Shown here piece by piece: positions 4,322 to 38,955 of a stretch of DNA of 64,000 nt. The translations under genes and the position numbers were made by a program. Position 1 is the first letter of the stretch. Each line of letters starts with the position of its first letter. The DNA lies in assembly GCA_965240325.2 (NCBI GenBank), contig OZ251226.1, forward strand, positions 1,860,001 through 1,924,000. The letters are read 5' to 3'. This DNA is from Rebecca billardiae RCC1528. Its lineage: Eukaryota > Protista > Haptophyta. The notes beneath the pieces are model-generated. The model worked only from the letters and a program-made list of their open reading frames with translations. It did not search any database and had not been told where the DNA came from.

Positions 4322-4415
4322 CCGCGCGGCGGAACTCGGCACCGGCGCACGCAGACCGCGCCTGAAGCCTCCGCGACGCCGCGAGTGGGACCGCACGCGT
4401 CCTGACGCGGGCGTT

Positions 4416-6508: not shown

Positions 6509-6546
<38 letters not shown>

Positions 6547-12763: not shown

Positions 12764-12835
12764 CGTGACCGTCGGCACGTATCTTGCGTCGTCACTCTCA
12801 CGGCCGGCGGGTGTGCGTGTGCCCAGGGCCCGAAT

Positions 12836-14374: not shown

Positions 14375-14509
14375 GCATGCGATCCGGCGGCTGACGTCCG
14401 CTCGCGCGCGCTATCGTGCGCGCCCGTGATTTCGTCAAAACGACCCAGGACTGCAGAAGCCAGAAGTCTGTTTCTTCGATCTACTCCTGCGTCCTCGGGC
14501 GTCAGGAGG

Positions 14510-20758: not shown

Positions 20759-22161
20759 GTAGCGTCTTAACCCCTATTGTGGAACGGACCCCTATTGTGG
20801 AACGGCGCCAGTTTTTCCTATGTAGAGCTCGGATGTCGCGGAGGCGATGAGATCGGCGGCTACCGCCGTGTGCGCCTGGCCAAGGCGCGTCCAACGAGCC
20901 CAAGAACGTCGCCATAGCCCCACCCCAGCGCCGTCCGCTGCCTATCGTTTGCTGGAGTCAGAGCTGAGAATCTGGTGTGAAAAAATGGTTTTCGGCTCCT
21001 GTAGGCCGAAGCTTCGGCCGGGAGGGCGCGCACGGTATTTTTGGGAGCTCCCCGAAAGCAGCCCGGGCAGGGAATCAAGCCGGCTTGCCGCTGCCGCACT
21101 CGTGGATGGAGCGCGAGTGACACGAATTGGGTCAGGTCAGCATGGCTGATTCCTGGGTTGGAGGGTCGAGGACGCCCCGCCGCGGCGGGGGGCGGTGCGG
21201 CGGCGCGAGCTGACTGGTGGCGATGATGAACGCGTAGCCGAAGGTGCCGGACCGTCAGGCGACGCCCAACCCCGCAAAGCAGCTGCATCGCCTGCCGACC
21301 GCGCGAGAGCCGCGCCGCGCGAAGCGGCTGGGCGCGAGTGGACTACGACCCGCCGGATGCAGCCATCAGGGACTGTGTGTAGAGCGGGGAGCTGGCGTGA
21401 GGGCACAGCTGTCGCCGACTTCGGCTCATATGCCGTGACAACGGGCCACGCTCTGTCGGATGGTGAAGGACCCGACCAGCCCGTCGAGGCCGCTGGGGCT
21501 GAAGCCGCGGCTGAGCGGCTGTGACGGTCGAGCAGATGCACACCAACTGGGTCGCGGAGATAGCGCTACTCGGCTTCGCGCCGACCACGCGGCAGGTCTG
21601 CATCGATGCGGCGCTTCTCTTCCTGCGTAGCGGCGCGCCCTTCTCTTCCTGCGTAGCGGCGCGCCCTTCTCGACGCTCTCCAGCATGCCCTGGAAGCGGT
21701 GGTGTCGGCGGCGGCTCAGGCGCCACGCGAAGGCGAGCGAGCGTCGATGACGGACACGCTCGTCGACCGCATCACTCATCGTGGAGAGGGTTCGCGCGGG
21801 CAAGACGTGCCCCCCGGCGGCTGCGGGGTCGAGGGCGGGTGCCCACACCACCAGCACGCCGGCGAGCGCCAGTGGGCCGACTGCGAACGCTCAGGAGCCA
21901 GCAGTGGCACCGTCCTGAGCGAGGAACCAAAATCGTTCCACAATAGGGGTCAGTCGACCCGTCGACGCACCTCGCGGGCGCGCGCGCGCGCGCGCGCGCG
22001 CGCGGGCTAGTTCCGAGCTCCGCACCCTCAGCGGTGTATGGTCCCTTCGGTAGGACCCATGGCCAGTACCTGACACCTTAAGATCGCTCGCCGAGCCGCA
22101 CTACCTCGCCCTAGGGGCGGAAAACCCGAAAATCGTTCCACAATAGGGGTTAAGACGTTAC
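20759..22161. mobile_element. Non-autonomous TIR DNA transposon (piggyBac-like TTAA|CCCC ends, or a longer TIR)
   Basis: CGTCTTAACCCCTATTGTGGAACG (20763-20786) is the perfect inverse of 22134-22157. The core motif is duplicated at each end (20788-20805 and ~21934-21950). No transposase ORF was recognised. Confidence 0.75.
21615..21671. repeat. 26-bp tandem duplication
   Basis: TTCTCTTCCTGCGTAGCGGCGCGCCC occurs twice, plus a partial third copy. Confidence 0.85.
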
Positions 22162-22363
22162 TGTGAGTTTTAACAACGAATATCAACGATCGCACCGTCT
22201 AATTTAAGTCGTCGAATCTAACAATCTATTTATCATCGTCGCTATTATTATCTGCCCGAGAGTCCGCGTAGACCCTGTGGCCTGAATTACTACAGGCAAT
22301 AATCGCGGGCAATTATTAGGAGCTATGTCACGTTAAGAAGCTGGGGCTTGCTATCTGCGGATA

Positions 22364-22608
22364 GAGAGAGAGGGTATTACCTACTCACCAGGACAGTTTA
22401 CCCCCGGCCGCCGCGCCGTCACAAAATGGCCGGCACTCGCAGGTCATTTTCGCGCATCCGCGCACACCCTCCATCCCTCCCGCCCCTCCGAAATCACCGG
22501 TGTTTGCCACCCGAAACGAGACTGGCAAATGCCGGTGATTTTCGCGCTGAAAACCATGCTTTCACAAGCGAAAATTTAGACGCCACTTCGATACACTGCG
22601 CGCTACGA
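22364..22608 (+). repeat. Left TIR of the viral element
   Basis: Reverse complement of 35968-36212; I count 6 mismatches in 245 bp. Confidence 0.95.
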
Positions 22609-22718
22609 TCCCGCCAAGACAAACCGAGGGCGGCCGCCGAAGCTCAGTTCCAAGGCCGAAGCTTGCGAGCCGGCCAAGAACTACCAGTGATCCAAGGCCG
22701 AAGCTTTCCGGATCTCGC

Positions 22719-23036
22719 TTTTCACCAGGACAGACCAGCGCCCCGCCAGTAAAAACTCGCGAGGCGACCATGATTTTACCGGTGAAGCTTCGGGTCTCAA
22801 CTTTAGAGGCCACTTCGAGCACTCCGCCAGGCAATTTTCACCAGGACAGACCAGCGCCCCGCCAGTAAAAACTCGCGAGGCGACCATGATTTTACCGGTG
22901 AAGCTTCGGGTCTCAACTTTAGAGGCCACTTCGAGCACTCCGCCAGGGTTTTACCACCAGGACAGACCAGCGCCCCCACCAGTAAAAAAAGGCGACCATA
23001 CGGGCGAAGCTTCGGGGGTCTCAACTTTAGAGAGGC
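22719..23036 (+). repeat. Subterminal 116-bp direct repeats (2 near-identical, 1 degenerate)
   Basis: TTTTCACCAGGACAGACCAGCGCCCC... starts at 22719 and 22835; a degenerate copy starts at ~22949. Confidence 0.9.
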
Positions 23037-23237
23037 CGACCATCCCCAAAACATATTTCGATCCGCACTTAAGACTTGGGCCGAGCTCGCGCGACGATGT
23101 CGGCATCCCGGGCGGCCGCCGCCGACCCTCAGCCGCCGACCCGCCATCCGTGGAAAAAACTTAGGACTTGGGGGCCGAGCCAGCGGCGGACCAAAGTGCG
23201 TTAGTTTGCGACGAAAATTTTCTGTGCCAGAGTAAGA

Positions 23238-26200
23238 ATGGTCATCCTCGACCTTGACCGCCGCAACCAACTCGAGCAGGTACTCCTCGACCCCGAGCTG
23301 CCCATGAGGCGGCATGGAGCCGCGCGCCACGAGCTCGACCGAGACCGTCTCGAGAGGCTCTTTGCCGAGTTCAACCTGACGCCAAACGTCGATGGCAAGA
23401 CCTTCGTGCTGCAGGGCAAGCGAAAGCGCATGCCCAGAACGCGCAAGAGCTGGGACCAGCTACGCCGCACGCTCGAGAGGCTTGAGAAGCACCAGCCTAT
23501 GGAGACCGAGCTGAAGGCGATGGGCATCGACCTACAAGGCGGGCAGTTCACGCTCCAAGGGCGCAAGAGACGCCTCCCTCGCACGTCCGAGGGCATGAGG
23601 AAGCTGCGCAAGCAGATTGGATTCACCGCCAAGATGCTGAATGATGGCATGACCAGGGTGGCTGTGCATGGGCCGGAGATCACCAAGGAGACGACCTTCA
23701 CCATGCCAATCTCGATGCAGGTGGAGGCGACGGCGCCTCTGCTCATGCGAGAGCAAGCGCTCTACCAGATGCCGTCGCATCTGACAAGCGCAATCCACGA
23801 CTTTGTCGCTGAGACGATCGAGAAGGAGCTGATGCGCGGAGCATCGAGTCGGCTCAAGGTGAGGGTCATCATCGAGACGCTGCATGTGAAGAGCACCAAG
23901 GGTGTCTTTGCGGTCGAGATGCCGAGCCTGCCCGAGGACGCCTACCGCCGCATGATCGAACGAGGGCACCCCACCATCTCGAAGTCAAGTCGCTCCATTG
24001 CCGGCAAAGCAGTTTGGCAGCAGGAGCCGCAGCCGCTCATCGATCTCGTCAACGAGATGATCACAGACGCCTTCGAGCAGCGGCAGTCAATCTACGCGGA
24101 CAAGCCAATCGCCCTCAGCCGGATGTGGATAACCAGCGGCATGGTGACGCCTCGCGGAGCGACATCCGGGAGCAGCTACGTGAAGCTCGAAGGGCGGTGG
24201 GCGAACGCCAAGATGGGCATCGTCAACCCCAAGAACCAAGACCTCAAGTGCTTCATGGCCGCGCTGCAGGCGGCAAAGGCTGTGGAGAGCGGCGTTGCCC
24301 ACCCCGAGCGGCCGAGCGTCCACCGGAAGTTCCTCGTGACCGAGCCCGAGGGTGCTGTCTACCCTGTGGACATCGGTGAGATCCGCGCATGGGAGGTCGC
24401 CAACAACCTGGCCATCACAGCCTATCGCCTTCCCGAGGACGGTGGGCAGGCGCAGGTGATGCGACTGCCGACGCCGCAGGATTTCCACAACCTGCCTCGG
24501 GTGACCCTCGGGCTCTACAAGGAGCACTGGGTCTTCTGCCGCTCCGCCGATGCCATTTGCGCAAATACCACCTATATCTACTGCGAGCTGTGTCTCAAAA
24601 AGTTCCCGTTCAACGCTCGCGCCAAGCGAGATGAGCATCAGGAGACGTGCCATGACTCGTGGACGGTTAACTACGATGCTCAGACTGAGGAGCAGAAATT
24701 AGCCAGCTACATGACGCCTCGCGAGGCTGCGGCCGGCAAAGATTACCAGACCTCTATCGAGTACACGGGAGGCATCGAGCAGATCGTCAAGCCGCTGGTG
24801 ATCCACGCCGATTTCGAGACCGTGACCATCGACGGTGAGATGAGGCCATATGCCGTCGGCCTCATTGAGACCTGGAGCGACGGAGCCATCAAGTACGTGA
24901 CCTTCACCGGGCCTGAGTGCCATATTGATCTGGTGGTCTACCTGCTGGAGACATACCCGAGCTACCTGGATACTGCAAGCAGGCACTCTGCGCTTAAGAA
25001 ACGCTCCTTCACACATGAGACCCAGCAGGCTTTCGATAGTGCCACCTGCTGCTACCTCTGCGACGGCGAATTCGGCGAGACCAAAAATTTCGACCATGAC
25101 CACTACACTGGCGCATATCGCGGTGCTGCTTGCACAAAGTGCAACCTGCATGCATCCACGACGAATCTCATGGCGAGCGTACCAGTATTCTTTCACAACC
25201 TCACCGGCTTTGACGCCAATTTCCTGATCCAGGCCCTCGGCTCCGAGCGGGTGCAAGGGCTGATGAACGAGATGGCCAGGATAAAGCAGAACCGCAAAAC
25301 GGAGATCCTCAAGAAAAGGATCGAGGCGCAGGAGGCGCTTCTCGTCTCGTGCGCAGTAAGAGGAGACAACTATGACACTGCGCAAATCACCAGCCTCGAG
25401 CGCGAGCTCGCGAGCACGCGCCCCACCAAAGCGCTCAAAACCGACATCATTCTCCAGAACACGCAGCGACTCAAGCAGCTGACTATCGGCGGCTTTTGCT
25501 TCAAAGACACGATGGCTTTCATGAAAGAATCGCTGGAGACGCTCCTAGACAACCTGGACCCCGCGGACATGCGGAACTTGCGCTCGTTTGCCAGCGATTG
25601 GGCGCGAGCCCGAGGACTCGACCCAGAAGTCGTATTCGAGGCCGCGCGGCGCAAGGGCATTTTCCCCTACGAGATTCCGTGGCACCTCGAGCTGGATACG
25701 CCCATTGACACGCTCATCGAAAAATACCCCGACCTCTTCTTGTCCAAGCTTAAATCGAGCTTCGGTATCGCAGGCCAGGACCAACACTTTGAGGCGGGCG
25801 AGGATGAGGCGATCGTCAAGCTCGTGCAACTCAAGTCGGCGGTCGGGCTGGAGACGATGAGAGACCTCCTCGACTGGTACCTCGCTATCGACGTTCACGG
25901 GCAGGCAGACGTCTTCACCAACTTCCAGCACCTCTTTCACACCAACTTTGGCCTGGACCCGAGCTGGTTTCTCTCGGCGCCGCAATCCTTCTTCAAGACG
26001 ATGCTCAAGACCACGGGGCAAAAGATCGAGCTCTGGCAAGACTCGAAAGACGTGGACTTTGCTTCCAAGTGCATTCGAGGCGGCTACACAGATGTGCGCC
26101 ACAAGCTGCAGACGGCAGGAGGAGGCGTGCATATCGGCTACTTTGACGCCAACAACTTGTACGGCTGGGCGATGAAGCTCAAGATGCCAGTAGGCGCGCC

Positions 26201-27512
26201 CTGGGATGTTGAGCCCGAGGACTTTGACCTGCACGACCCCCGGTATGGGCGGCTACCGAGTGACCCCGGCGACCTCGATTTCCAAGGAGACATCGGAGCG
26301 TATGTGGAGATCGATGGCTACTATCCGGAGCACACGCACCAGCGCCTCAACGATTTTGTCCCGCTGCCCGAACACAGGGACGGCAAGCTCATCGCGCACC
26401 TCGACCCACGCGTCAACTATGTGTGCAGTGTGCTGAATCTGCAGAAGGCAGTCGAGCTCGGCTTTGTCGTGACAAAGGTCCATCGCGTGCTAGAGATGCA
26501 TCTAGCACCGTGGATGCGCGGCTATGTCGACCAGATGGCTGCGCTGCGCGCCCAGGCGAGAAACGACTTTGAGAAGAATTTCTTCAAACTAGGCCCGAAC
26601 TCGTGCTTTGGAAAAACCATGGAGCGCACGCTGCACCACCAGGATGCCGGCATCGTCTCTGGGAGTGTGATGGAGAAGCGCTTCCTCGACCCGCGCAGCC
26701 GGTACTCGAGGCATATCGGCGGCTCGCTCTTTCTCGTCTCTGGTGACAAGAAGCGATACCTCAAGACTACTCCTGTTCAATTGGGCGCGCTCATCCTTGA
26801 GAGCTCGAAGCTGCTCATGCAGACCTTTTGGTACGATGGCCTCAAGCCGGCGCTTCCAAACATCCAGCTCTGCATGACCGATACCGATTCCTTCATCTTC
26901 TCGGTGAACGACAAGAATTACAAGCACAAGATGAAAGAGCTCGCGCCGCGCTGGCTTGATATGCATGGCTACCACAAGCGCAACCCGATGCATGATGCCT
27001 CGAACCAGAAAGTGGTCGGCTACTTCAAGGACGAGTTCGCCAACGACCGCATTTGCGAGGTGGTGTGCAACGCGCCGAAATGTTACTCGGTCAGATCGAC
27101 AAAGAAACAGCTACGCAAGAACAAGGGCGTGCCATACAAAGTGGTGACGAAAGCACTGCAACATGGTCACTATCGCGATATCGTCCTCCGCGAGAAGGAG
27201 ACACACGTAGAATACTACCAGATTGCGCCGCGCTCGAATGTGGTGAGGATGGAACGCCGTGAGAAGGTGGCGCTCCGAAACTCGTACAACAAGGGTGTCG
27301 TGGCTGCGGACGGGCTGGAGATCCTATCGCTGGGCCACTACAAGCTCGATCCAAGGAGACACTTTGAGCGAATTATTCGGACACATGATTGGGACACGCT
27401 CACAGCAAGGAAGGCAGCGCAAATCATGGTCGACGAGTCTGGCTACGACGTGAGCCTCAAGTGGGCCAACCGAATAATGAACGAGTTCGTCACAGCTTGC
27501 TTGACGGGCTGA
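23238..27512 (+). CDS. polB: Protein-primed family B DNA polymerase (Maverick/Polinton type) with vOTU-like, zinc-finger and endonuclease VII-like domains
   Basis: Exonuclease motifs IHADFET, FHNLTGFD and YLAIDV; KGIFPYE; IRGG; polymerase motifs YFDANNLYGWAM, KLGPNSCFGK, TDTDS, FKDE, PKCY and KGV. CYLC...DHDHYTGAYRGAACTKCN is EndoVII-like. NPKNQDLKCF...EHW is a vOTU-like Cys/His pair. Confidence 0.95.
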   Translation: MVILDLDRRNQLEQVLLDPELPMRRHGAARHELDRDRLERLFAEFNLTPNVDGKTFVLQGKRKRMPRTRKSWDQLRRTLERLEKHQPMETELKAMGIDLQGGQFTLQGRKRRLPRTSEGMRKLRKQIGFTAKMLNDGMTRVAVHGPEITKETTFTMPISMQVEATAPLLMREQALYQMPSHLTSAIHDFVAETIEKELMRGASSRLKVRVIIETLHVKSTKGVFAVEMPSLPEDAYRRMIERGHPTISKSSRSIAGKAVWQQEPQPLIDLVNEMITDAFEQRQSIYADKPIALSRMWITSGMVTPRGATSGSSYVKLEGRWANAKMGIVNPKNQDLKCFMAALQAAKAVESGVAHPERPSVHRKFLVTEPEGAVYPVDIGEIRAWEVANNLAITAYRLPEDGGQAQVMRLPTPQDFHNLPRVTLGLYKEHWVFCRSADAICANTTYIYCELCLKKFPFNARAKRDEHQETCHDSWTVNYDAQTEEQKLASYMTPREAAAGKDYQTSIEYTGGIEQIVKPLVIHADFETVTIDGEMRPYAVGLIETWSDGAIKYVTFTGPECHIDLVVYLLETYPSYLDTASRHSALKKRSFTHETQQAFDSATCCYLCDGEFGETKNFDHDHYTGAYRGAACTKCNLHASTTNLMASVPVFFHNLTGFDANFLIQALGSERVQGLMNEMARIKQNRKTEILKKRIEAQEALLVSCAVRGDNYDTAQITSLERELASTRPTKALKTDIILQNTQRLKQLTIGGFCFKDTMAFMKESLETLLDNLDPADMRNLRSFASDWARARGLDPEVVFEAARRKGIFPYEIPWHLELDTPIDTLIEKYPDLFLSKLKSSFGIAGQDQHFEAGEDEAIVKLVQLKSAVGLETMRDLLDWYLAIDVHGQADVFTNFQHLFHTNFGLDPSWFLSAPQSFFKTMLKTTGQKIELWQDSKDVDFASKCIRGGYTDVRHKLQTAGGGVHIGYFDANNLYGWAMKLKMPVGAPWDVEPEDFDLHDPRYGRLPSDPGDLDFQGDIGAYVEIDGYYPEHTHQRLNDFVPLPEHRDGKLIAHLDPRVNYVCSVLNLQKAVELGFVVTKVHRVLEMHLAPWMRGYVDQMAALRAQARNDFEKNFFKLGPNSCFGKTMERTLHHQDAGIVSGSVMEKRFLDPRSRYSRHIGGSLFLVSGDKKRYLKTTPVQLGALILESSKLLMQTFWYDGLKPALPNIQLCMTDTDSFIFSVNDKNYKHKMKELAPRWLDMHGYHKRNPMHDASNQKVVGYFKDEFANDRICEVVCNAPKCYSVRSTKKQLRKNKGVPYKVVTKALQHGHYRDIVLREKETHVEYYQIAPRSNVVRMERREKVALRNSYNKGVVAADGLEILSLGHYKLDPRRHFERIIRTHDWDTLTARKAAQIMVDESGYDVSLKWANRIMNEFVTACLTG

Positions 27513-28410
27513 ACGATGACGACGGCGACGAGAACCGAGGTGTGGGATCGTACGGGATGACCTTGAGGAATGCCTTCGCCGCGTTTTCAGATACATTAAA
27601 ATCTCTGGCCAGCATCTTGCTCAGAGCTGTGCGCGATTCTTTCGGGTTGGCCTGCATCATGAGTATGATGGCATCGATGTTGTCGTCAAGGTGGTCTCTC
27701 GCTTCATTTCCGAAGAGCGGTTTTGAGGCCTGGGTGCCAGCCGTCTGCTGGGATGGCTGCTCCTGTGTGCCCATGGAACGCCTCTTTGGACCGCCAGCCT
27801 GCGTGCCAATCGCCGGGCGCTCTGGCACCCCCTGAGTGCCAGTTGAACGTCTCTTTGGACCGCCAGCCTGCGTGCCAATCGCCGGGCGTTCAGCCGGAGG
27901 AGGCATCTCCTGAGTACCCATGGAGCGTCTCTTGGTGCTCGCCTGAGTACCTGTAGAGTGCTGCTCTGGCCGCAGGTTCCGAACGACTCTGTCCGTCTCA
28001 ACACCAATCGATCGCCGCTCTGGCACGGCGCTTGTGGAGACAGGCAGAGGCTGCTTGTTTACTATGAGTCTGCTCATGGCCTGACCAGACGCATCGCGTG
28101 TAGGCAGGCGAATCTGCCGAGCACGAAATTCGTTGACACCATCGCTAAAGGGGAGCAAGGAATCGATGGAAGGCACTCGCCTGCCCACTGCAGCCGTCTG
28201 GTTTGTGGGCGGCGGTCTCGTGGGCTTGATCAGCGGCTTCATCACAATCGGCTCGGCCGAATACGTCAATCGTCTCGAAGACGGCGTAGGCACGGATCCG
28301 CTCCAGTATTCTTTCCCTCGGCTGTGAAAGGAGCCTCCATACGGTTTGCCCTCGAGCCGAAAATGCGTGGTCTTGGTCGGCAGGAATCGCTCGCGATGTA
28401 TGGCCTGCAT
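27490..28410 (-). CDS. Viral hypothetical protein with seven GTQ repeats
   Basis: 306-aa ORF whose ATG directly abuts the ATPase stop; contains a 69-bp internal DNA repeat encoding ERPAIGTQAGGPKRRS(T/M)GTQ. Confidence 0.75.
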   Translation of the reverse strand: MQAIHRERFLPTKTTHFRLEGKPYGGSFHSRGKEYWSGSVPTPSSRRLTYSAEPIVMKPLIKPTRPPPTNQTAAVGRRVPSIDSLLPFSDGVNEFRARQIRLPTRDASGQAMSRLIVNKQPLPVSTSAVPERRSIGVETDRVVRNLRPEQHSTGTQASTKRRSMGTQEMPPPAERPAIGTQAGGPKRRSTGTQGVPERPAIGTQAGGPKRRSMGTQEQPSQQTAGTQASKPLFGNEARDHLDDNIDAIILMMQANPKESRTALSKMLARDFNVSENAAKAFLKVIPYDPTPRFSSPSSSFSPSSKL

Positions 28411-29106
28411 CTATAATAGTAATGATAATTTATTCCACTCTCTGTGGAGCGTACCATGGTCTGCATTAAGAAATAAAAAAGTGTGCGGATCGCCATCGCC
28501 AAAAATGTACTGATACACTGTAGCAAAGTCTGAGCGAGGCATCATGATCAATTCAGAGCGCAGAGCCTCTAGCTCCTTGGTATTGTTGGGCTTGAACACG
28601 GTCACATGCGAGAATAATTTTCGTATAGTCAGTGGCACCGATATGTAACCCTGTGATATAACAATGATACTGAGTTTGTAGTGTCGCCTGTTCTGAACGA
28701 TACGCGAATACAGGCGTTGTAAATTTGGGTCTTTTAGTGACGCAGCAAAATCATCTATAATAAGGAGCGTCGGCAAAGGCATATTCGACTCGGCAATGCT
28801 GAGCACATTCTGAAGTGTCTCTGCCGTCAGCTCGTGGTACACATATTGGAGCGTGGCTAGCGGGGAATTTTGGAAGCTGTCCACCGAGGTGCGAGGAGCC
28901 ACGAAGATTACGTTGGCAAAGACTCGTTTATAGGGCCCAGTGATCAAGCCCACTACCTGGCTGGATTTGCCGCTACGGGGTGGGCCAAAGACGCCCCAAT
29001 GAAAGCTCGTGTTTGGGAGAGGCTCTGGCAGGCCTGGCTTTAGAGGCTTGTCCGCACTGATTCTAGGCAGCGGGAGCTCTATGTGATGCGCGATCTCGTT
29101 GATCAT
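28411..29106 (-). CDS. A32-like (FtsK/HerA) genome packaging ATPase
   Basis: Walker A GPPRSGKS, Walker B LLIIDD, and NRRHYKLSIIVISQ...IR typical of Polinton/PLV ATPases. Confidence 0.92.
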   Translation of the reverse strand: MINEIAHHIELPLPRISADKPLKPGLPEPLPNTSFHWGVFGPPRSGKSSQVVGLITGPYKRVFANVIFVAPRTSVDSFQNSPLATLQYVYHELTAETLQNVLSIAESNMPLPTLLIIDDFAASLKDPNLQRLYSRIVQNRRHYKLSIIVISQGYISVPLTIRKLFSHVTVFKPNNTKELEALRSELIMMPRSDFATVYQYIFGDGDPHTFLFLNADHGTLHREWNKLSLLL

Positions 29107-29432
29107 ATAAACCGCATGATTCTTTTTTGGGATGTCTTGACAGGGGTCACCTCCGGGGTCACCGCCTCTGGGGTCACCTCTTCCTCGCCTGCCAGCTCGA
29201 TCGATTCGACCGGCTGCCTGACAATGCTCGGCGGCGTCTTGCTTGGTGGGCGCCTGGGTGTGGGTGCTTTTGGCCCGACCTCGCCGCCGATTTCTTCGAG
29301 CTTGGCTTTCGCATCCTCTGCCAGCTTGGTGTATGTGGCCGCATGTGTCTCATATGTCACAACCTGGCGTTTCAGGCGCATGCGCTCCGTCGCCAGCTGC
29401 TGCGCCTCGCTGCGTGTCTTTTTATTCTCCAT
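29103..29432 (-). CDS. Viral hypothetical protein (coiled-coil N-terminus, VTPE repeats)
   Basis: 109-aa ATG ORF whose stop overlaps the ATPase start (ATGA). Confidence 0.6.
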   Translation of the reverse strand: MENKKTRSEAQQLATERMRLKRQVVTYETHAATYTKLAEDAKAKLEEIGGEVGPKAPTPRRPPSKTPPSIVRQPVESIELAGEEEVTPEAVTPEVTPVKTSQKRIMRFI

Positions 29433-29545
29433 CTTCTATATGCAAGCAGAGAATATTTTGGATTTCAGCCGAGAGGATGCATTGGCATGGTACATCTCCA
29501 AGAAGCTCGGCACGAGCGATGATGAAATAATATCGGCACTAATTC

Positions 29546-30283
29546 ATGCTGCACCTGCACACGACAAGTCAGGGCGATGTGTTCCCACTGGGCCGAGCCA
29601 AGACGAGCTGCGTGAATTTCACACTGAGCCACCCAATCATGGCGGCAAGCGATGAGGTCATATTTGTATCTGTCGATAGCCTGTGTGTGCCTAATACGCG
29701 CTATGCCGTAGACAGCTCGAATAATAGCGTGGGTGCCGCCTCCGACTGGGGCGACACAACGCTCACGCTCACCCCGAAGAATTATACCGCTAGCACGCTA
29801 GTCACGGAGATCAACTCGGCATTGTCTAGCATCAACGTGACTGCTGCTTTCGACTCGGCCACTGGCAAGCTTACATTCTCGACGTCACATGGTTTCGACA
29901 CCACCATCAAGGGCACGAGCAGCGCTTCGCGCGTGCTCGGCCTCTGTCGCACAGACTTGGTAATACCTGCTGGCGGCAGTATAGAGGCACCCGGCGTGGT
30001 GGACCTGCTCAGCCGAGGCTTTGCGCTAACCTGCGAAGGGTTGGATGTCAAGAGCAGAGACTCGTCCAACTCGGGCTCATCAAGCAATATTTTGTGCGTG
30101 GTGCATATCGACAAGCCTTTCGGCCAGACTGTACTGTACACTGATGCGAACAATGACATTTTGCAGTGCAACCGCCGGAGTATACAAAATATCGAGCTCC
30201 AGCTGATCGATCTCGAGACCATGCAGCCGGTGGAGCTGAATGGAGCCGAGTGGTCTGTCAACCTGAAATTCCAAATTTCTTAA
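29546..30283 (+). CDS. Minor capsid (penton) protein
   Basis: Beta-rich 245 aa directly upstream of the major capsid gene; PLV penton-like motifs VPNTRYAVDSSNN, KNYTASTL and IQNIELQLID...ELNGAEWSVNLKF. Confidence 0.8.
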   Translation: MLHLHTTSQGDVFPLGRAKTSCVNFTLSHPIMAASDEVIFVSVDSLCVPNTRYAVDSSNNSVGAASDWGDTTLTLTPKNYTASTLVTEINSALSSINVTAAFDSATGKLTFSTSHGFDTTIKGTSSASRVLGLCRTDLVIPAGGSIEAPGVVDLLSRGFALTCEGLDVKSRDSSNSGSSSNILCVVHIDKPFGQTVLYTDANNDILQCNRRSIQNIELQLIDLETMQPVELNGAEWSVNLKFQIS

Positions 30284-30308
30284 GAAATATTTCCTGGCCA
30301 TAGTACTT

Positions 30309-31622
30309 ATGGCTTACGCCGGCAAGCGTGTGACGAACGATATTCGCGGTGATGACGCGATGGTGCTCGAGCAGGAGGAGACGGCTCCGAGCTACTATGA
30401 CTTCTCAAACCCCAAGCCCGTCGCCGTTGGCGCTGCCTACAAGAGGTCGACGATATATGCAGGCCCGTCGTCTAGCTTCACAAGTGGCCAGGTGATGCAA
30501 TTCGATATCCCGACTGGCACGCCCGGCGCGATGATGGACCCGTCGCAGACAGTCCTGCAGTTTACAATCCACAACACCTCTGGCCAGCCTCTCACGCTCT
30601 CAAGGTCTGCATACTCGTGCATCGAGCGCATTGACGCCTACCACGGCAGCCAGATGATCGCAAGCACTGGCAAGGCAGGCCTGCTGCACAATGTCTTGCT
30701 CGACTTCCAGTCGGGCGCATCTTCGGGCTTCTCCACCGGCAGCATGCTGGGCTGTGCCGACTACGAGATGCCTGCCGCATATGCAGCCGCCGATGTTGAG
30801 AGCGCGCTTTACCCGACAACCGGTGAGACAATTGCCAACAATGCCCGGAAGACGGTTACCCTCCCACTCGCGTACGTGTTTGGCGCTCTGTGTGGTAAGG
30901 CGGTGCCGCTCTCTGAGCTGCACCAAGGCCTTCGTGTGGACATCCATGTGGCCAACATGCTCGACTTTGGCGTGTATGATGCCGACCCAGGCACTACCTC
31001 CCCCACGCTTGAGACGGTCAAGATGCAGCTCGGCATGGTCATGCTGAGCGATAGTGCCTACACCAAGATGGTTCGCTCGCTCGATCGGATCTACATCCCA
31101 TCGATGTCCTACCTCCATGCCTCCCACTCGGTGGCTGCAAACACGTCGACGGCCTGGCAGTTGCCGTTCCGCCTGGCCTCGGTCAACATGATCATCCTGG
31201 CTGCGGTGCCGAATACCAGTGAGAACGCCTTTGGTGGCGACATCACGACTCGCACGCGAGCGGCGCTCACCAAGTGGCAGTTGCGCATCGGCTCTACCCT
31301 CGTGCCGGATCAGCCAGTCTCTGCCACCCACGGCGGCGCAGAGACGCGCGCTGAGCTCGTTCGCGCCTTCAACGCGCTCGGCATTGCCGATTATGCCTCT
31401 CGCGTGAGCGGCACGGCCTTTGACGATGCGGCTTTCTGCATCGCCTTCAACACGAGCGCCTTCTCGCAGTCCGACATCCTCTTCGACGGTCGCCGACTCG
31501 ATACGGAGTACGCCATCTTTGAGGCGGACACGAACAGCGGGGCATCTTTCAAGTGGCATGCCTGGGCGCTCCATGATGTGATGATGGGGGTCTCACAGAA
31601 CCAGCTTAATTTCGCCATTTAA
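30309..31622 (+). CDS. Major capsid protein (double jelly-roll, PLV type)
   Basis: 437 aa; N-terminal SFTSGQVMQFDIP..GAMMDPSQTVLQF and SCIERIDAYHGSQMI resemble PLV major capsid proteins; size and gene context fit. Confidence 0.85.
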   Translation: MAYAGKRVTNDIRGDDAMVLEQEETAPSYYDFSNPKPVAVGAAYKRSTIYAGPSSSFTSGQVMQFDIPTGTPGAMMDPSQTVLQFTIHNTSGQPLTLSRSAYSCIERIDAYHGSQMIASTGKAGLLHNVLLDFQSGASSGFSTGSMLGCADYEMPAAYAAADVESALYPTTGETIANNARKTVTLPLAYVFGALCGKAVPLSELHQGLRVDIHVANMLDFGVYDADPGTTSPTLETVKMQLGMVMLSDSAYTKMVRSLDRIYIPSMSYLHASHSVAANTSTAWQLPFRLASVNMIILAAVPNTSENAFGGDITTRTRAALTKWQLRIGSTLVPDQPVSATHGGAETRAELVRAFNALGIADYASRVSGTAFDDAAFCIAFNTSAFSQSDILFDGRRLDTEYAIFEADTNSGASFKWHAWALHDVMMGVSQNQLNFAI

Positions 31623-31639
31623 TTTCGCTCTATATATAC

Positions 31640-31933
31640 ATGAGTTTTCTAGGTAGACTCGTTAGAGATGCGCGCGGAAAGATCGGCGGGCTGGCTAACA
31701 CCGCCCGAAGGCTCGGCAGACCTATCAGCTCTGCAATCCATCACCTAAAGCCCTGTGTAGACAAGGTGGGTGGGGACGTCACCCAATTCTTGAACGAAGT
31801 CGATCGCACCGAAGGCCTCGGTGATATCGCCTCACCTTATACGGCCGCTGGAAGGCGGGCCATACAGCGTGGGCGTCAGATCTCCAACCGTCTGGACCAG
31901 GGGGCTCGCAGAGCCGACCGGTTTCTACGCTAG
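31640..31933 (+). CDS. Small basic amphipathic protein (candidate membrane-lytic or core protein)
   Basis: 97 aa, Arg/Gly-rich, N-terminus MSFLGRLVRDARGKIGGL; immediately after the major capsid gene with an AT-rich leader. Confidence 0.65.
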   Translation: MSFLGRLVRDARGKIGGLANTARRLGRPISSAIHHLKPCVDKVGGDVTQFLNEVDRTEGLGDIASPYTAAGRRAIQRGRQISNRLDQGARRADRFLR

Positions 31934-32542
31934 GCGGTGCTGCTCTCGTAAAAAGCGGATTGGGCGCGTGAACGCGTCTGCGCTGATGCGCCCGACCGTC
32001 TTCCGACTGCCCCCTCGCTGAGTGAGCGAGAGTGCCGACACGATATCGCCTGGAGAGCGGACATCGAATTGTGTCTTTGGTAAGACCTTTCCGATATCCT
32101 TCAACCCAGCACCTTTTTGGGATGTATGCACCTGAGCTGCGCCAGAGTTTTCGGCTATGTGCCCGCCCAAGCTGTGGCCCATGGCTGACGTCACGCCATA
32201 TTTTCGCCGCACAATCTCGACCAGCTTTCGGGCTCGCTGGTGGCGCGGATCATATACAGAGAACCCGAGCGCGAGTAGCACATCGGACACTGCCCAGTCG
32301 GCAAAGCTGACACTGCCTCGAAATAGGACTAGCGGCCGGCCTGATGCTATGTGCACCAATACCTTGTCTTCGTCAGACGAGAGTCTGACGTCAAGCCGAT
32401 ACCGCGGCTTTACGTGCTCGCGCGCCTGCTCGAGCGTCATGTATGATGCTTCTAGCAACATGCGCCTGTCTTTTTGGAGGGTCGTCCCCGAATCGAATAG
32501 CATGCGCTCGCCTTCCTGGGTTGAGATGGTGGGGATATTCAT
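31925..32542 (-). CDS. Lipase class 3-like alpha/beta hydrolase
   Basis: VLFRGS..DW, nucleophile elbow GHSLGG and DIVS; a common PLV/virophage accessory gene. Confidence 0.85.
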   Translation of the reverse strand: MNIPTISTQEGERMLFDSGTTLQKDRRMLLEASYMTLEQAREHVKPRYRLDVRLSSDEDKVLVHIASGRPLVLFRGSVSFADWAVSDVLLALGFSVYDPRHQRARKLVEIVRRKYGVTSAMGHSLGGHIAENSGAAQVHTSQKGAGLKDIGKVLPKTQFDVRSPGDIVSALSLTQRGGSRKTVGRISADAFTRPIRFLREQHRLA

Positions 32543-32556
32543 ATTACTGCACAGTT

Positions 32557-33189
32557 TTATTTGCGAGGCCTGAGCATCCTGAAGCCGTGAGCCGAGCGGA
32601 CTGGGTGCCCGCTCGTGGCGTCTACAATGTTTGTGACCTGCGCTCGCCTGTCTCTCTGGCTACGCGTGCGACGGATGGCTCCAGTAGGGATGACTGAGGT
32701 TTGCTCCACAGCCGGCTGGCTGCCACCTCTGTGAGTGATCGAGCCCTTGTCATTAAAAACATACCAGTTCCCCTCTGTTTGCCTCCGCACCACCGCCATG
32801 AGCAGAGCCAGGAGCGGCCGAATCTCAGGCCATGGTGCCCCGCTTTGTCGCCACTCTTTATCCCGGAGAGGCTTGACAAAACTGTAGCCTGGATTCGTGC
32901 GAGCGAGAAGCCGATCCTCCACATCTTTGGCCAGGTTGGGGCTCGTCACAAGGAATGCCAGTAGCTTGAAGCTGCCTGCAGCATAGGGCATGCTATGCCT
33001 GTACCCAGCGAAGAGCCTACTCCGAATATTTTTGGTCATTCCCATTTTAAACAGGGGTCTCTTGCCAGCCCATGTTGGGTGGATCACATACACGCCGGCA
33101 ATCTTTTTGTCCTTGTCAGCGAAGCCCGCATTTTGCAGCGCAGCCTTAAACTGCGTATACTCCTTCTTTAGCGGGTCAGTGATACGCAT
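32557..33189 (-). CDS. GIY-YIG (T5orf172/MUG113-like) nuclease-domain protein
   Basis: GVYVI...FKMGMTKNIRSRL...VEDRL...KEW. The ATG at 33189 avoids overlap with the divergent gene at 33212. Confidence 0.7.
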   Translation of the reverse strand: MRITDPLKKEYTQFKAALQNAGFADKDKKIAGVYVIHPTWAGKRPLFKMGMTKNIRSRLFAGYRHSMPYAAGSFKLLAFLVTSPNLAKDVEDRLLARTNPGYSFVKPLRDKEWRQSGAPWPEIRPLLALLMAVVRRQTEGNWYVFNDKGSITHRGGSQPAVEQTSVIPTGAIRRTRSQRDRRAQVTNIVDATSGHPVRSAHGFRMLRPRK

Positions 33190-33211
33190 ATTATTATATG
33201 GCTTATAATAT

Positions 33212-35329
33212 ATGGCGAGCATCTTCGGCCTAGTTTCATCATCATCATCAATCAGCTGGAGTGGCGAGGTGCTCACGTACCCAGCAAGCTCGTCTATAAC
33301 TATCAATTTCGTTCCGCCACTGCCCGATGCCGACCTGAAAATACGGGTTTCCCATCCCAGGCATGTATTCACTGTGACGAGCGCGAGCATAACTCCATCG
33401 AGCGCCACTGTAGTCTGGACAGCAGACAATTATGAGAAGGTCGTGAATCGCCAATATGATCATGAGTATAAGCCCTATTTCAGCGTATATTCTGGTGATA
33501 CTCTACTGACCAGCTTTGATCACACGGGTACGCTATATCATGGATCGATCGAGTCTGGCAATCTGATTACCCAGTCCATTCTCACTGGCCCCACAGTGGC
33601 TCATTTCCCGCTGACCGCAGACCTGGTTGATACCACTCCCCGCGCTCAGAGCCTCGTGCCGGCTGGCACGTTTGCCTTTGCTGAAGACTCCGCGCGCTCA
33701 ACGGCCAATGCGAGCACGCTCACGCTCCAGACACCGGGGCACGACTGGCGGGATTTTAGTGCGGCTTTTTTCCTGAAGGGCTGCCCAGGCCTGAGTAAGC
33801 TCTCACTAGGCGGTGGGCTCTCGTACGCGAGCGCTGAGCTGGACTCGAACATCATCGCTAGTAGCAGTGTCGGCTTTGTAGACGACGTGAGCCAGATGGT
33901 CCCAAGCGGTGTCTGGACACACTTTGTCATCTCGCAGGAAACCACGTCTTTTGAGGCGAATATCGAGATCTATGCGGACCAAACGCTCCTCCACTCTCGC
34001 ACTATTGGCCAACAAACGGACCCGGATTTCAAGCGGATTTCGCTCTACTACCCACTCGTCGCCACGCTTGACGACCAGGCTGCGCTCGCGCAGCTGAGCA
34101 TATATCCATACGCTCTCGATGCGGCCGGCCGCCTGGCGCACGCGCAGTCGTGGCCTGGGTATGTCCTGCGGTACACATGGCTGCTCGATGGAGACTTGCT
34201 CGAGGTGGACGGTGCCGCCGCCGCGCTGCAGCCCACAAATGGCGATTATGTGATGACGAGCGGTTACCTAGAGATGCAAAATACTAGTACATTGCATCTC
34301 GGTCTGAATGAAATGCCCGACATGCAGGGCAGCGAGCGCTTCTCGCTTGCGGCATGGACCTACCGCCCGAATAACACCGATGCCGTTCGCATGTGGCTCC
34401 TCGAGGATGGCGTCACCGACTTCACTTTCGAGATCATCGGTGGCCAGCTGCGCTCTGAGCTGGGCGCGACAGCGTTTCAGGACTTGGCAGGACCGGCACA
34501 TGGAGAGTGGCACCACATTGCGCAAACAGTGGATGGCACCACGTCCAAAGTGTACATCGATGGTGTGCTGGTGAGTACTACCACGCTACCAGCCAGCTTC
34601 ACCCCGCTGCTCAGCATCATCGGGCACAGAACCGCGCCTATGACCGCAGGCGTGCGACTGTATGCCATGACAATCGCGCGCGGGATCATCGATGTGCCGA
34701 CGGTGATGAATTTGTACTCGCCGATGCAAGGCTTAAATCCATTTGCCAGCTGGCCGATGACGACGAATTTGACCGATGATGTTGGCAGCTATGCTTTCAC
34801 TGTATCCAGCGGCACTGCAACGCACACCAATGGCTATGCTGATCTCAGCAGCTCGGTTGTGATGACAGCGCCAGTACCGACGCAGACGATGACGATGTTT
34901 GGGTTCTCAGCGTGGGTTTATGTCGACAACGTCTCAGGCTCATTCAAACTCGAGTGGCGCAATACAGGCTCGAAGGTCGTTCATTTTTACATCTACCGCA
35001 ACGGCGTTGGGAACACCGCGTTTGGGTTCGATATCACAGGGCAGTCTGGTAATTTATACGACCGAGTCGATGTTTTGCCGCTGAACACCTGGTATCATAT
35101 TGCTTGGTCTTATACAGTGGGAGGCAACATGGAGGCCTGGTTGAACAAGGTATCGCTCGGCGTTGAGGCCATGAGCGCCACTGCCGTGGGCGATGTCAAC
35201 GAAATTTACGCGAGCACGCCCCCAAGCGGCGGTCCATTCAAGTGTGCTGCAGTGCGCTTCTACACCGAAGGTGCGATCACGCAGGCCGAGGTCGATCGCG
35301 ACTATGACCTCTTCACGCCTCCGCCATAG
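33212..35329 (+). CDS. Multi-LamG/concanavalin A-like domain protein (candidate fibre or receptor-binding protein)
   Basis: Three LamG-like signatures: GVWTHFVIS, GEWHHIAQTVDGTTSKVYIDG and NTWYHIAWSY. Confidence 0.8.
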   Translation: MASIFGLVSSSSSISWSGEVLTYPASSSITINFVPPLPDADLKIRVSHPRHVFTVTSASITPSSATVVWTADNYEKVVNRQYDHEYKPYFSVYSGDTLLTSFDHTGTLYHGSIESGNLITQSILTGPTVAHFPLTADLVDTTPRAQSLVPAGTFAFAEDSARSTANASTLTLQTPGHDWRDFSAAFFLKGCPGLSKLSLGGGLSYASAELDSNIIASSSVGFVDDVSQMVPSGVWTHFVISQETTSFEANIEIYADQTLLHSRTIGQQTDPDFKRISLYYPLVATLDDQAALAQLSIYPYALDAAGRLAHAQSWPGYVLRYTWLLDGDLLEVDGAAAALQPTNGDYVMTSGYLEMQNTSTLHLGLNEMPDMQGSERFSLAAWTYRPNNTDAVRMWLLEDGVTDFTFEIIGGQLRSELGATAFQDLAGPAHGEWHHIAQTVDGTTSKVYIDGVLVSTTTLPASFTPLLSIIGHRTAPMTAGVRLYAMTIARGIIDVPTVMNLYSPMQGLNPFASWPMTTNLTDDVGSYAFTVSSGTATHTNGYADLSSSVVMTAPVPTQTMTMFGFSAWVYVDNVSGSFKLEWRNTGSKVVHFYIYRNGVGNTAFGFDITGQSGNLYDRVDVLPLNTWYHIAWSYTVGGNMEAWLNKVSLGVEAMSATAVGDVNEIYASTPPSGGPFKCAAVRFYTEGAITQAEVDRDYDLFTPPP

Positions 35330-35350
35330 ACTAAAAATCATGTCATATAA

Positions 35351-35590
35351 ATGAAAGCTTCGACCCGCAAGGGTAAGCGATACGAGTACAAGGGTGTGCA
35401 TTTTGGTGCCAAAGGCGGCAAGACGTATATAGACCATGGCGATGATGCCATCAAAAAGGCCTGGATCGCAAGGCATCGCGTGAATAAAAACTGGAACAAC
35501 CCCAAATCTGGGATTTACTACAGCCGTCATTTGCTGTGGGGCCCGACAACGAGCCTGCAGAAAAACCTGGAGATACTACATGGACGATAG
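35351..35590 (+). CDS. Small conserved viral protein (DUF5754/Tlr6F-like)
   Basis: Pattern STRKGKRY...VHFG...YIDHGD...ARH...SGIYYSRHLLW, recalled from PLV/virophage/NCLDV small proteins; the family name is from memory. Confidence 0.6.
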   Translation: MKASTRKGKRYEYKGVHFGAKGGKTYIDHGDDAIKKAWIARHRVNKNWNNPKSGIYYSRHLLWGPTTSLQKNLEILHGR

Positions 35591-35893
35591 GCCGCCTCCA
35601 TCGGCCGTCTTCAGCGCCGAGTGCGTGCTCAGCTGCATATCTGAATTGCTATCTTCCTTGTTTTGCCGAGGATGACGCTCGCGCCAGAGTGCCTGACGTT
35701 TCTTGAGCAGCTCCCGGTTGCATGCGATGCAGATCTTGGCTCGGTAAACACGCTTGTTCTTGCGACGGTAGTTCATCTCGAGTGCGGGCACGTATTTCTC
35801 ACATGCTTTACAGTGGGCGTACAGGCCCTTGAACTCGGCTGGATTCTCTGGGCCCATGCGACCATCCTCGACGGTCGTGAAGGTGGTCTTCAT
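35576..35893 (-). CDS. Small CxxC-CxxC zinc-finger protein
   Basis: CKAC...CIAC followed by a basic helix; ATG at 35893 is in frame with ORF 35576..35902. Confidence 0.6.
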   Translation of the reverse strand: MKTTFTTVEDGRMGPENPAEFKGLYAHCKACEKYVPALEMNYRRKNKRVYRAKICIACNRELLKKRQALWRERHPRQNKEDSNSDMQLSTHSALKTADGGGLSSM

Positions 35894-35967
35894 ACTTAAC
35901 ACCCCGCAGAAATTATTTAGCCACCGACCACCCGCTCGCCACTATGGCGGTTGGGTGGTGGCTGGCC

Positions 35968-36212
35968 TCGTAGCGCGCAGTGTATCGAAGTGGCGTCTAA
36001 ATTTTCGCTTGTGAAAGCATGGTTTTCAGCGCGAAAATCACCGGCATTTGCCAGTCTCGTTTCGGGCGGCAAACACCGGTGATTTCAGAGGGGCGGGCGT
36101 GATGGAGGGCGTGCGCGGATGCGCGAAAATGACCTGCGAGTGCCGGCCATTTTGTGACGGCGCGGCGGCCGGGGGTAAACTGTCCTGGTGAGTAGGTAAT
36201 ACCTTCTCTCTC
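35968..36212 (-). repeat. Right TIR of the viral element
   Basis: Inverse of 22364-22608. Confidence 0.95.
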
Positions 36213-37619
36213 GTATCTGGCCTAGGAACTGAGACTAGCGATTGGCTGGTTCGCTATACGCATCTAGATCTAGTCACACTAAGAAACCGGGACTACGTCG
36301 CCCGCGGCCGATGAGTGGTCCGCCGAGGGCCCGAGGCGCAGTCCCCGTGGGATGCGGCGCGCGGCCCGACTACGACGGTACAGGCTAAGTCCCGACTGAG
36401 TCTCCTGATGACTGACTCCTGGCCAGTGCACCGCAGCATCCATGCAACATCATGCCAGATTTGCTGCATCAACTAATGGCCCAAAATTTTCTTGGGCCTC
36501 GCCGGCCGGGCCTAAAGACTCACGGTCGGGGGGCTCTGCCCCCCTGCGCCCCCCGCGTCTGCGCGGCGGGCGGACCTAGGCCTAGCTAAGAAACTGAGAC
36601 TCCGTAGGCGCTCGGGCTACCGAACTGCTAAGAAACCGAGACTAGCCGTGAGATCTCTGACTTCTTATTGCCCGCGATTGCCTGTAGACTGACGATCATC
36701 GGAATGCATCATTTATCATTTAATTATGGCCCGCGGTGCAGGGCGGAGCGCGCAGCGTGGAGCCCGCACCAGCGGGCCCGAACCACGTTTCAAAAAGATC
36801 TTTGATCAAGAAAAAAGGGACGGGGGGCGATTTTTAGGGCTGGCGGAGACCGAGTTTCGAGTTTTTGAGATCGCATAGAGAGGTCTATTAGGCCGAAAAT
36901 AACCGCGCCCAGCTGATTCCCTTAAGTAAAGTGCGATCTGGACGTCAGCTGGACGTGACATTAGTGTAACGGTTCGTTACGAGCGCGATTTTGTGGGTAG
37001 ACTCTCGTTCATGTGTGATAGTTTGCCTCCGCCTTGATGAATATGAACTTGGCTTCGCGGCGGTTGGTATCTAGAGTCTAAAACCCGCAAGCCTTATTGA
37101 AAATACCCGCGCAGCTATTCGTTGCCAGCCCATTCCATAGTCACTGACTTACCGAGCTGGCGAGCTCAAAACCTGCCGCCGTCGCAAGCACGTGACGCGC
37201 AGGTTCCTTCGGGGTGGCGAGCGAGCCGCGACGACTCTTGGTCCAAGCCTCCAAGGGGGCGCTCGATGGGCAGGTGCGCGTGGCAAGTGCCGAGTGGCGC
37301 CTGGAGCGCGCGTCTGCGGCGGGTCCCGACGGCCGTCGACATCGCGTTCGTGCCCGCTCACTAGTCACTCCGCACGCCCCTGCCGCGCCCTGTCGATGCC
37401 TGCGCGGCCGGCCGGCGCGCGGCCGCGCCGCCGCCGCCGCAGCCGCCGCCCTGTGTTCGGGCTCTCGCAAGCTCGGGGGCAGCGGCGCATGATGCCGGAC
37501 TGATCGATCTCTGAGTCTCCGACTTCACCACACGCCCCCCTTGCCATGCCTCTCCGCCAGGGTCTCCCAGAACTCTTCTTCAGAGCAGGCGCAAGTCGAA
37601 CTCGGAACTGGCCGCGGCC

Positions 37620-38135
37620 CCGCGCGCCGTCGGCTCCCCGTGGCTGTCAGCTCCGCGTGGCCTGGGCGCCTGGCGTGCCCAGAGCTGGCCGTGCCTCTGC
37701 GACGCGTGCCGAGCCTGACCGAGGTGTGTCACCCCGTGCACGCGCGGCGCGCGCAAGCACCGGTGCTGCATGGCTGCTCGCACCGTGCTCCCTGGCTCGC
37801 GGTCAGTCAGCTCGGCCGCGTGGTGCCTGGTGTGCACGTAGAGTCGCGCTCATGCGTCGCTCACGCCTCGCGCCCGCCTGTCGGCCGTCGCGCAGGCGCG
37901 CAGGTCGAACCCTACTGACCTGCAGATCATCTACTCCTGCGCTGCTGGCGTCGCGGCGACGACGGTCAGCGGCAGGCCCGAACGAACGGTCGAATCCGCG
38001 CGGTCCCGCGCCGTCCGGCTCCCTGGCTGTCAGTCAGCTCCGCCGGTGGCCTGGCGTGCAACAGTCGCGCTCGTGCGTCGATCACGCCGAGTCGCATCCG
38101 CCTGTCGGCCGTCGCGCACGCGCAGGGGGTCAGGT
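37620..38135 (+). repeat. Degenerate ~120-bp direct repeats
   Basis: CTCCCTGGCT...GTCAGTCAGCTC...AGTCGCGCTC...CCGCCTGTCGGCCGTCGCGCA at ~37788-37895 and ~38019-38120; partial copy near 37630. Confidence 0.6.
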
Positions 38136-38955
38136 AAGGGCCGTCTGTGATGAGGGCAGCTCGGCCGACGACCGACATCCACACTCGGCGCACGCCGGCG
38201 GCGGCGCGGCGCTGGGGCGGCGCGCCGCTGGATGGAGTCTAGTTACACGTGTACGGGACGACTGCGACGGAGGGTGCACCGCCACCGCGGGCCCCGAACT
38301 ACGTTCGTTCTACGGAAAAGGACCGCGGAACGCGGTCATATTAGACTGATATGAACAAGCTAGTAGAAGTAAGATCGAAGCGTTATAATATTGCGTGGGC
38401 GGCCACTGACGCCCCAGGCCTGAGCCTGAGGCCAGTGAGGCCACGCCGCCACGCCTGCTTACTGCTGTGACACAGAGTGCACTTACTGCTATGTAACTAA
38501 CACAGTCACAGCCACAGGCGGGCAGACGGAATATAACGACTCAGAATAGTATGGATTAGTGCCGCCTCCCGCCTGGCCCCGGAGTGGCCGCTCGGCCCGC
38601 TGGCGCGACCGGGCGCCGCCCCGGGGGCTGTAGGCCGCGCGTGTAGTGGGTGATAGGTCCACCGGAAGGCGGAAGCGACCAGGCGGGGCTAAGGACCGCC
38701 CCGCGCGGAGGGCGGAGTGGACGGATCAGGACGTCACATGACGGACGGATGCGTCGGCAGCCCAGGCTGATTGCTGAACCCGCAGGGTTTGGGGGCTCCG
38801 GACTGGCTGAGGTGCCCGAGTTCGTGCCTGGAGCCGCCGGTACGTGCAGGTAGATCACTGGCGGTATAATCAACCAGGAACGCACTGAGATCTCAGCACA
38901 TGTGCAGATGACACTTCACAGCCACAGGACCATTCACTGGTGACTGGATGAGAAC

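Follow-up and report, generated by a model that had tools for sequence, protein, structure and literature searches.

An intact, divergent endogenous Polinton-like virus without a detectable integrase, inserted into a multi-copy repeat of the haptophyte Rebecca billardiae

We analysed a window of 64,000 nucleotides from the haptophyte Rebecca billardiae RCC1528 (GenBank assembly GCA_965240325.2, contig OZ251226.1, forward-strand positions 1,860,001 to 1,924,000; coordinates below refer to the window) and found in it an intact, very divergent Polinton-like virus (PLV) of 13,854 bp, with terminal inverted repeats (TIRs) at its ends and lying in one copy of a host repeat. An initial annotation of the same DNA had proposed an intact endogenous PLV, and the TIRs, 12 intact open reading frames (ORFs), a capsid module and an empty insertion site bear this out. 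PLVs lacking an integrase are a kind already known; what this copy adds is a junction resolved to the base and free of a duplication, so that the integration route can be tested, in a group whose mode of integration is stated to be unknown in the available text of PMC12721341. At about even confidence, we infer that end-joining repair by the host joined the linear viral genome into the repeat copy.

The insertion was resolved with the contigs of one public run (X1; a single study, perhaps from the organism's own or a related sample, with 28% of sampled words), which leave 22519-22720 and 32369-33019 uncovered; runs X2 and X3 gave no contigs aligning to the element. In X1, positions 36275-38878 form a repeat present in many copies (depth 19-84; 0.9-2 in the two outer flanking bins), of which the others are empty: 22360 joins 36215 directly, and two letters (AT) fit either side. 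A further X1 contig agrees with the window as far as 22362, after which its letters are those from 36217 on. The insert therefore extends over 22362-36215 with a 2-bp AT ambiguity, and the ends first annotated, 22358 and 36213, have to be shifted. Equivalent readings are a blunt insertion at the middle of a GATC, or an insert of 22363-36214 with a 2-bp AT duplication. The hexamer TATCTG present on both sides was considered as a 6-bp target duplication and rejected, since the empty copies already contain it and it thus belongs to the target. The element, its ends and the interrupted repeat are as follows.

22362..36215, no strand: whole inserted PLV; the empty-site joint from 22360 to 36215 skips 13,854 bp, at depth 27.6
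22364..22608, plus strand: left TIR, starting as a GA dinucleotide run
35968..36212, minus strand: right TIR, from inverted-repeat comparison
22719..23032, plus strand: tandem repeat of a 116-bp unit, about 2.7 copies, with sub-motifs common to the TIR and no gene family match
22290..22361, no strand: left part of the interrupted host repeat (depth 31 at 22330-22350; outer limit uncertain)
36216..38878, no strand: right part of the interrupted host repeat, multi-copy and apparently non-coding

The TIRs, each of 245 nt as first described and differing at 6 positions, are the sole long inverted repeat pair in the window. Between them the ORFs, 12 on recount and not 11, are uninterrupted and take up 90% of the element; as the initial annotation had noted, they are tightly packed, the only ORF-free gaps above 113 bp being one of 875 bp at the left end, where the TIR and the tandem 116-bp units lie, and one of 321 bp at the right end. 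These units may act as an origin or in packaging, or may be the scar of a rearrangement. The element has a GC content of 57% and the host flanks one of about 73%; the flanks encode eukaryotic genes (RRP5, RCC1/F-box, fructosamine kinase and a flagellar-type protein). The right part of the repeat has no Pfam or Rfam match, and the left part has an inverted match to about 36660-36690. The host repeat as a whole measures at least 2.7 kb; within it are short direct repeats and, in the empty form, an inverted pair separated by about 500 bp.

The search for an integration enzyme was negative. Among 117 six-frame ORFs of at least 70 aa from 20600-39000, Pfam returned no rve, tyrosine-recombinase or transposase family, and a custom rve profile, built from five integrases of related viruses, had no match in the window at E<=10. 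As a positive control we used 30 IMG/VR loci that encode this type of polymerase; seven of them were also positive with a major capsid protein (MCP) profile. The rve profile matched 21 of the 30 polymerase contigs (five of these being its training sequences; most of the other nine were covered only in part), and rve was present in six of the seven contigs with related polymerase and capsid (L020/L032, L024, L004, L010, L015 and L026), in L020 on the remainder of its contig, L032. The claim that the element has no detectable rve integrase is upheld by searches whose controls worked. That of no tyrosine recombinase holds for Pfam and for the HxxR motif, which occurs at no plausible place in the eight sequences checked; this absence is less rigorous than that of rve, because no PLV recombinase served as a positive control and a divergent enzyme is less well covered.

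The seventh control contig, L031 (15,128 bp, perfect 123-bp inverted terminal repeats), has a related polymerase and a distant capsid and matched neither rve nor PF00589. Being bounded by such repeats without either match, it indicates that integrase-less viruses of this type exist, and it is a candidate free-living integrase-less PLV. Over its length (1-15128), L031 also carries a phospholipase A2 gene beside that for the pPolB-family protein. Given that most relatives encode rve, the ancestors of the R. billardiae element probably carried it too, the gene having since been lost in this lineage.

At the junction, an overlap of at most 2 bp, with no 5-6-bp duplication, speaks against rve-type insertion and for host end-joining. 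The virus would likely replicate as linear protein-primed DNA from its TIRs and likely be packaged by its own ATPase and capsid proteins, a giant virus being likely needed for transcription; such a linear genome could then be captured at a host break by end-joining, with no more than 2 bp duplicated. A second TIR end in X1 has another 46-nt outer flank, missing from the window, and likely represents a second insertion with a slightly different end. Its junction shows neither AT nor GATC, and the terminal letters vary among the three TIR ends seen. Variable ends and a different flank are consistent with imprecise joining.

An rve integrase acting in trans, from a resident Polinton or PLV, was among the routes first suggested and has been put forward for integrase-less PLVs (PMC4642659); it would draw on a gene carried by most related viruses. 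This route would call for an unusually short duplication, since rve-type insertion typically leaves about 6 bp (PMC12220804), and the apparent 6-mer here was in the target beforehand. Duplications of 1 to 9 bp are described for rve-bearing EMALE virophages (PMC8547959), so 2 bp is compatible with rve in trans, which counts against our preferred explanation. Considering the 2-bp junction and the lack of rve anywhere in the window, we regard insertion by a borrowed rve integrase as improbable.

A tyrosine recombinase, supplied in trans or encoded and then deleted, might have integrated a circular form through the 2-bp AT core. The shared core fits this equally well, the sequence outcome being formally identical, and this too tells against end-joining. 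Tyrosine recombinases leave no target duplication (PMC12220804) and, among the information-processing genes that PgVV-like PLVs carry, are described as the most widespread (10.1101/2022.07.28.501842). If the gene was later deleted, the 116-bp repeats near the left end may mark the rearrangement. However, AT is not found at the junction of the second TIR end, and neither Pfam nor the HxxR motif revealed a remnant in the element or its flanks. Elements with pPolB are, moreover, expected to be linear, which argues against a circular form. We consider this route unlikely.

The initial annotation also named the virus's own nucleases, and two regions are candidates, a GIY-YIG-like ORF and an EndoVII-like insert in the polymerase. 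Either might cut the host, for example at GATC, with repair joining the viral ends; on the symmetric reading the insertion indeed falls at the centre of this palindrome. GATC is not seen at the second flank, however, and occurs at 59 sites within the element, without depletion. The GIY-YIG identity is unconfirmed, and database relatives also have the EndoVII-like insert, which is therefore no adaptation particular to this virus. Cleavage by a nuclease of the virus is accordingly a weak contender, of low probability. Carriage by a surrounding transposon is disfavoured: the flanking repeat is without the virus in its other copies, and no transposase match lies in the flanks. The setting, a small TIR element next to a repeat of many copies, is troublesome for assembly, and the junctions have no bridging contig, yet in the empty copies the flanks are exactly contiguous, as they should be if the virus truly inserted into a repeat copy that was already there. 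Carriage by the repeat or an assembly artefact is therefore very improbable.

Besides the overlaps shared with the enzymatic routes, several further points weigh against end-joining capture of an intact, integrase-less virus. Six mismatches between the TIRs point to a certain age or to recombination. Divergent tyrosine recombinases can evade Pfam, and the loss of rve is read from distant kin, the rve-bearing relatives lying outside the 14-row MCP clade of the element. The contig with the second flank is single and short (194 nt, depth 5.4) and may be non-chromosomal. Neither junction of this copy is spanned by a listed contig with at least 31 letters on each side, and none of the four contigs at the left junction bridges it. 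Finally, no whole genomes of the near MCP clade were found among viral contigs, metagenomes, prokaryote genomes and phages.

The genes of the element are listed below in order along the window.

23238..27512, plus strand: pPolB, protein-primed DNA polymerase, 1424 aa (PF03175 and PF02945)
27490..28410, minus strand: low-complexity basic protein, 306 aa, 50% P/S/T/Q/G/A
28411..29106, minus strand: A32-type packaging ATPase, 231 aa (PF04665, E=1e-4, just below the cut-off)
29103..29432, minus strand: 109-aa ORF; a comparable small ORF precedes the ATPase gene in L020
29546..30283, plus strand: likely minor capsid protein, 245 aa (DUF5901); homologues adjoin the MCP gene in L020 (E=7e-11) and L024 (E=1e-6)
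30309..31622, plus strand: MCP with a modelled double jelly-roll fold, 437 aa
31640..31933, plus strand: basic 97-aa ORF; small ORFs likewise lie 3' of the MCP gene in L020 and L024
31925..32542, minus strand: likely lipase-type hydrolase, 205 aa, with a GHSLGG motif (an L004 protein with that motif matches it pairwise at E=6e-6)
32557..33189, minus strand: possible GIY-YIG-like nuclease, likely 210 aa, with a single homologue (43%)
33212..35329, plus strand: LamG/ConA-repeat protein, 705 aa (PF13385, E=1e-21)
35351..35590, plus strand: DUF5754 protein, 79 aa (PF19058), with homologues in four viral loci
35576..35893, minus strand: CxxC...CxxC zinc-finger protein, 105 aa, matching the zinc-binding parts of phage endonuclease families

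The MCP has 329 relatives at E<=0.001, the nearest 37% identical; a word-index search with it returned the identical protein only. Its model, built from a 109-row alignment, has a predicted local distance difference test (pLDDT) score of 91.7 (29 for a single-sequence fold). In Foldseek the model matches PBCV-1 (E=7e-19) and other double jelly-roll capsids, with template modelling (TM) scores of 0.62-0.67 to PBCV-1, above the 0.48-0.55 to the Sputnik and mavirus MCPs. PF21738, the Polinton-type MCP family, has no match in the protein, while the control L026 scores E=3e-170. Organism names are attached to three clusters among 19 MCP relatives, one of Diacronema lutheri and two of Pavlovales sp. 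CCMP2436. The nearest named MCPs are KAG8469999 of the former and KAJ1628322 and KAJ1635970 of the latter (about 28-32% identity), and proteins of both organisms fall with that of the element in the supported 14-row clade. These names, together with the genome composition, suggest a Pavlovales-like alga as the host.

Homology and position make the 245-aa ORF a likely minor capsid protein. The ATPase has phmmer matches to viral ATPases with E-values down to 9e-19, and the 97-aa ORF matches its L024 counterpart at E=0.18 only. No protease family that might serve capsid maturation was found in the 117 six-frame ORFs, searched with Pfam alone and no dedicated profile.

The exonuclease and polymerase motifs of pPolB align with those of its relatives, and a likely terminal-protein region and vOTU-like C/HW motifs were assigned by eye (domain names after PMC11161782). 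A search with the polymerase region gave 274 relatives, with 25-32% identity among the 120 listed; they include Guillardia theta and, at 26-28%, Caenorhabditis briggsae, a moth and a beetle. In a 60-row tree pPolB forms a long branch of about 2.5, which, with FastTree only, does not permit placement or assignment to Polinton group 1 or 2. The domain matches, relatives and capsid fold agree with the pairing first proposed, an EndoVII-bearing pPolB of animal-Polinton type with a PLV-type capsid module. At the N-terminus of pPolB (23238-23630), before the likely terminal-protein region, lie the basic repeats LQGKRKR and LQGRKRR, which are missing from nine aligned relatives except for a weak match in P0006.

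In contigs carrying variants of pPolB, 12 of the 18 listed differences fall on the third position of a codon (p=0.004), and 8 of 15 codons are synonymous, against 23% expected (p=0.01, listed sites); the whole stretch has at least 77 further difference rows. This bias suggests selection among sister viruses. Upstream, a run of at least 7 A/T lies within 30 nt of the start in 11 of the 12 genes, against 5.7% of 488 other ATGs, and none of 20,000 resamplings reached the mean; the control is mostly coding DNA and the start at 33189 was picked after the motif had been seen, both of which reduce the weight of this comparison. The mimiviral early motif AAAATTGA is absent. By analogy with Gezel-14T and the EMALEs, the AT-rich runs would fit viral promoters that have been kept and transcription driven by a helper.

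Among the remaining genes, the 306-aa protein has no family match and no usable Atlas match, and its composition makes a virion or core protein likely. It was considered as a decayed rve: it matches the L004 rve in size and position, but is of low complexity and shows no similarity to it (E=10), and the candidate was dropped. Short motifs resemble those in two basic proteins of L010 and L015, a resemblance that alignment failed to recover. The lipase-like ORF has no Pfam match, and a PDB sequence search with it was empty.

The GIY-YIG motif claimed by the initial annotation can be seen by eye, whereas the family finds no confirmation in Pfam, in NCBIfam or by comparison with three proteins of GIY-YIG type encoded at related loci (two being Pfam matches), and a PDB sequence search was likewise empty. 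The single homologue of this ORF starts at about the same Met as the 210-aa reading; a 277-aa reading, from 33390, overlaps the neighbouring gene. The LamG/ConA protein is likely a fibre or receptor-binding protein. The family of the 79-aa protein, DUF5754, is one that we take to be Tlr6F, and the matches of the zinc-finger protein to phage endonuclease families are weak (best E=6e-4).

In the broad sense the element is a PLV, with a double jelly-roll MCP, a likely minor capsid protein, an A32 ATPase and no protease match, in a group of about 14-40 kb at whose lower edge its 13.9 kb lie. Polintons/Mavericks (Polintoviricetes) share with it the pPolB family, TIRs, a double jelly-roll capsid and an ATPase; unlike them, it has no rve, no protease, no 5-6-bp duplication and no PF21738 match in its MCP, and by these defining tests it is not a Polinton. 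Nor does it have the protease and virophage-type MCP of virophages (Virophaviricetes). L020 shares the head-to-head order of ATPase and capsid blocks, and all seven control contigs, L031 included, combine a related pPolB with an MCP matched by the same profile, but they are AT-rich (32-41% GC) and outside the MCP clade of the element. In the L020 virus, a glycoside hydrolase family 5 (cellulase) gene adjoins the fibre gene (L032:10949-11926).

The gene content resembles that of the PgVV-like PLVs (the Gezel-14T group, including integrated copies in D. lutheri), which, as described, share the MCP, the minor capsid protein, the A32 ATPase, DUF5754 (if it is Tlr6F), a lipase-type hydrolase and a fibre-like gene, and likewise lack a protease. 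The element differs from them in having no detectable tyrosine recombinase and in carrying pPolB instead of TVpol. Its counterpart of PGVV05 may be the 306-aa or the 109-aa ORF, candidates by position alone. The three MCPs of D. lutheri stand under the PgVV heading in Table S4 of PMC10120064 (by our own count of columns and with protein identity assumed). Membership of the element in the PgVV group is likely, on the indirect basis of an MCP tree that links it to the D. lutheri proteins and contained no PgVV reference protein.

Integrated PLVs without any integration enzyme have been on record since 2015, in an account in which PLVs acquired pPolB from Polintons several times (PMC4642659). Polymerase/capsid mosaics have also been described before (PMC4642659; PMC7805220), among them 28 viruses that combine Polinton gene sets with divergent capsids (PMC7805220). 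Several PLV clusters have many complete members lacking both integrases (PMC12220804); in the cryptophyte cluster C4, rve is present in 94 of 183 members and a recombinase in 6, which by subtraction leaves about 83 with neither. A Halocafeteria preprint also describes some PLVs without a detectable integration gene. Like the present element, the integrated PLVs of PMC4642659 and cluster C4 are endogenous and have neither rve nor recombinase; unlike here, where the empty site is base-resolved and all ORFs are intact, the available text of those sources invokes integrases in trans or leaves the route unaddressed. The undescribed lineage of the initial annotation thus survives as a divergent virus (capsid at most 37% identical, polymerase about 25-32%), not as a new, integrase-less kind. 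In our incomplete coverage of the literature, neither this element nor the use of an empty site to analyse an integrase-less PLV was described.

A recently described case is particularly similar. Tsv-S3b of Tetraselmis striata is an endogenous PLV with pPolB that becomes encapsidated after giant-virus infection (10.1101/2025.10.09.676808). By its description it resembles the present element in being TIR-bounded and endogenous, with a Polinton-like pPolB and a PLV capsid module, and the available text names no integration gene for it, restricts its mention of a tyrosine recombinase to the S2x group, and does not use the word integrase. The R. billardiae element has the same traits: TIRs, pPolB, a capsid module, a chromosomal location with host genes on both sides, and no detectable integration gene. 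Tsv-S3b differs in its Tsv-like MCP group, green algal host, size within 18-19 kb, 583-bp TIRs and demonstrated reactivation.

Copies of PLVs without an integrase were assumed to borrow one; the empty site described here, with an overlap of at most 2 bp, instead suggests repair-mediated capture. The element also extends PLV diversity by a polymerase on a very long branch. Should such proviruses reactivate like Tsv-S3b, algae could stock antiviral virophages without any integrase. We tentatively suggest, as a rather doubtful extension, a Pavlovales-associated PLV lineage that has wholly lost its integrase and still enters genomes as intact, inducible proviruses, its linear, protein-capped genomes being bluntly joined into host breaks, which a viral nuclease may have made, and then copied out again from the TIRs by pPolB. 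If this holds, endogenisation and reactivation would need no integrase.

Three minor features of the region were also noted. The GIY-like and LamG genes stand back to back over a 22-bp, near-palindromic, AT-rich spacer (33190-33211), possibly a two-way promoter. To the left of the virus, 20759-22161 is a non-coding element of 1.4 kb (depth 4-6 in X1) with 28-bp inverted ends (96%), including TTAA and then CCCC, and inner repeats of the end motif; we take it to resemble a piggyBac-type miniature inverted-repeat transposable element. The virus lies between two host genes with RCC1 repeats (12943-14135 and 52126-53314), which are 69% identical in DNA and oppositely oriented.

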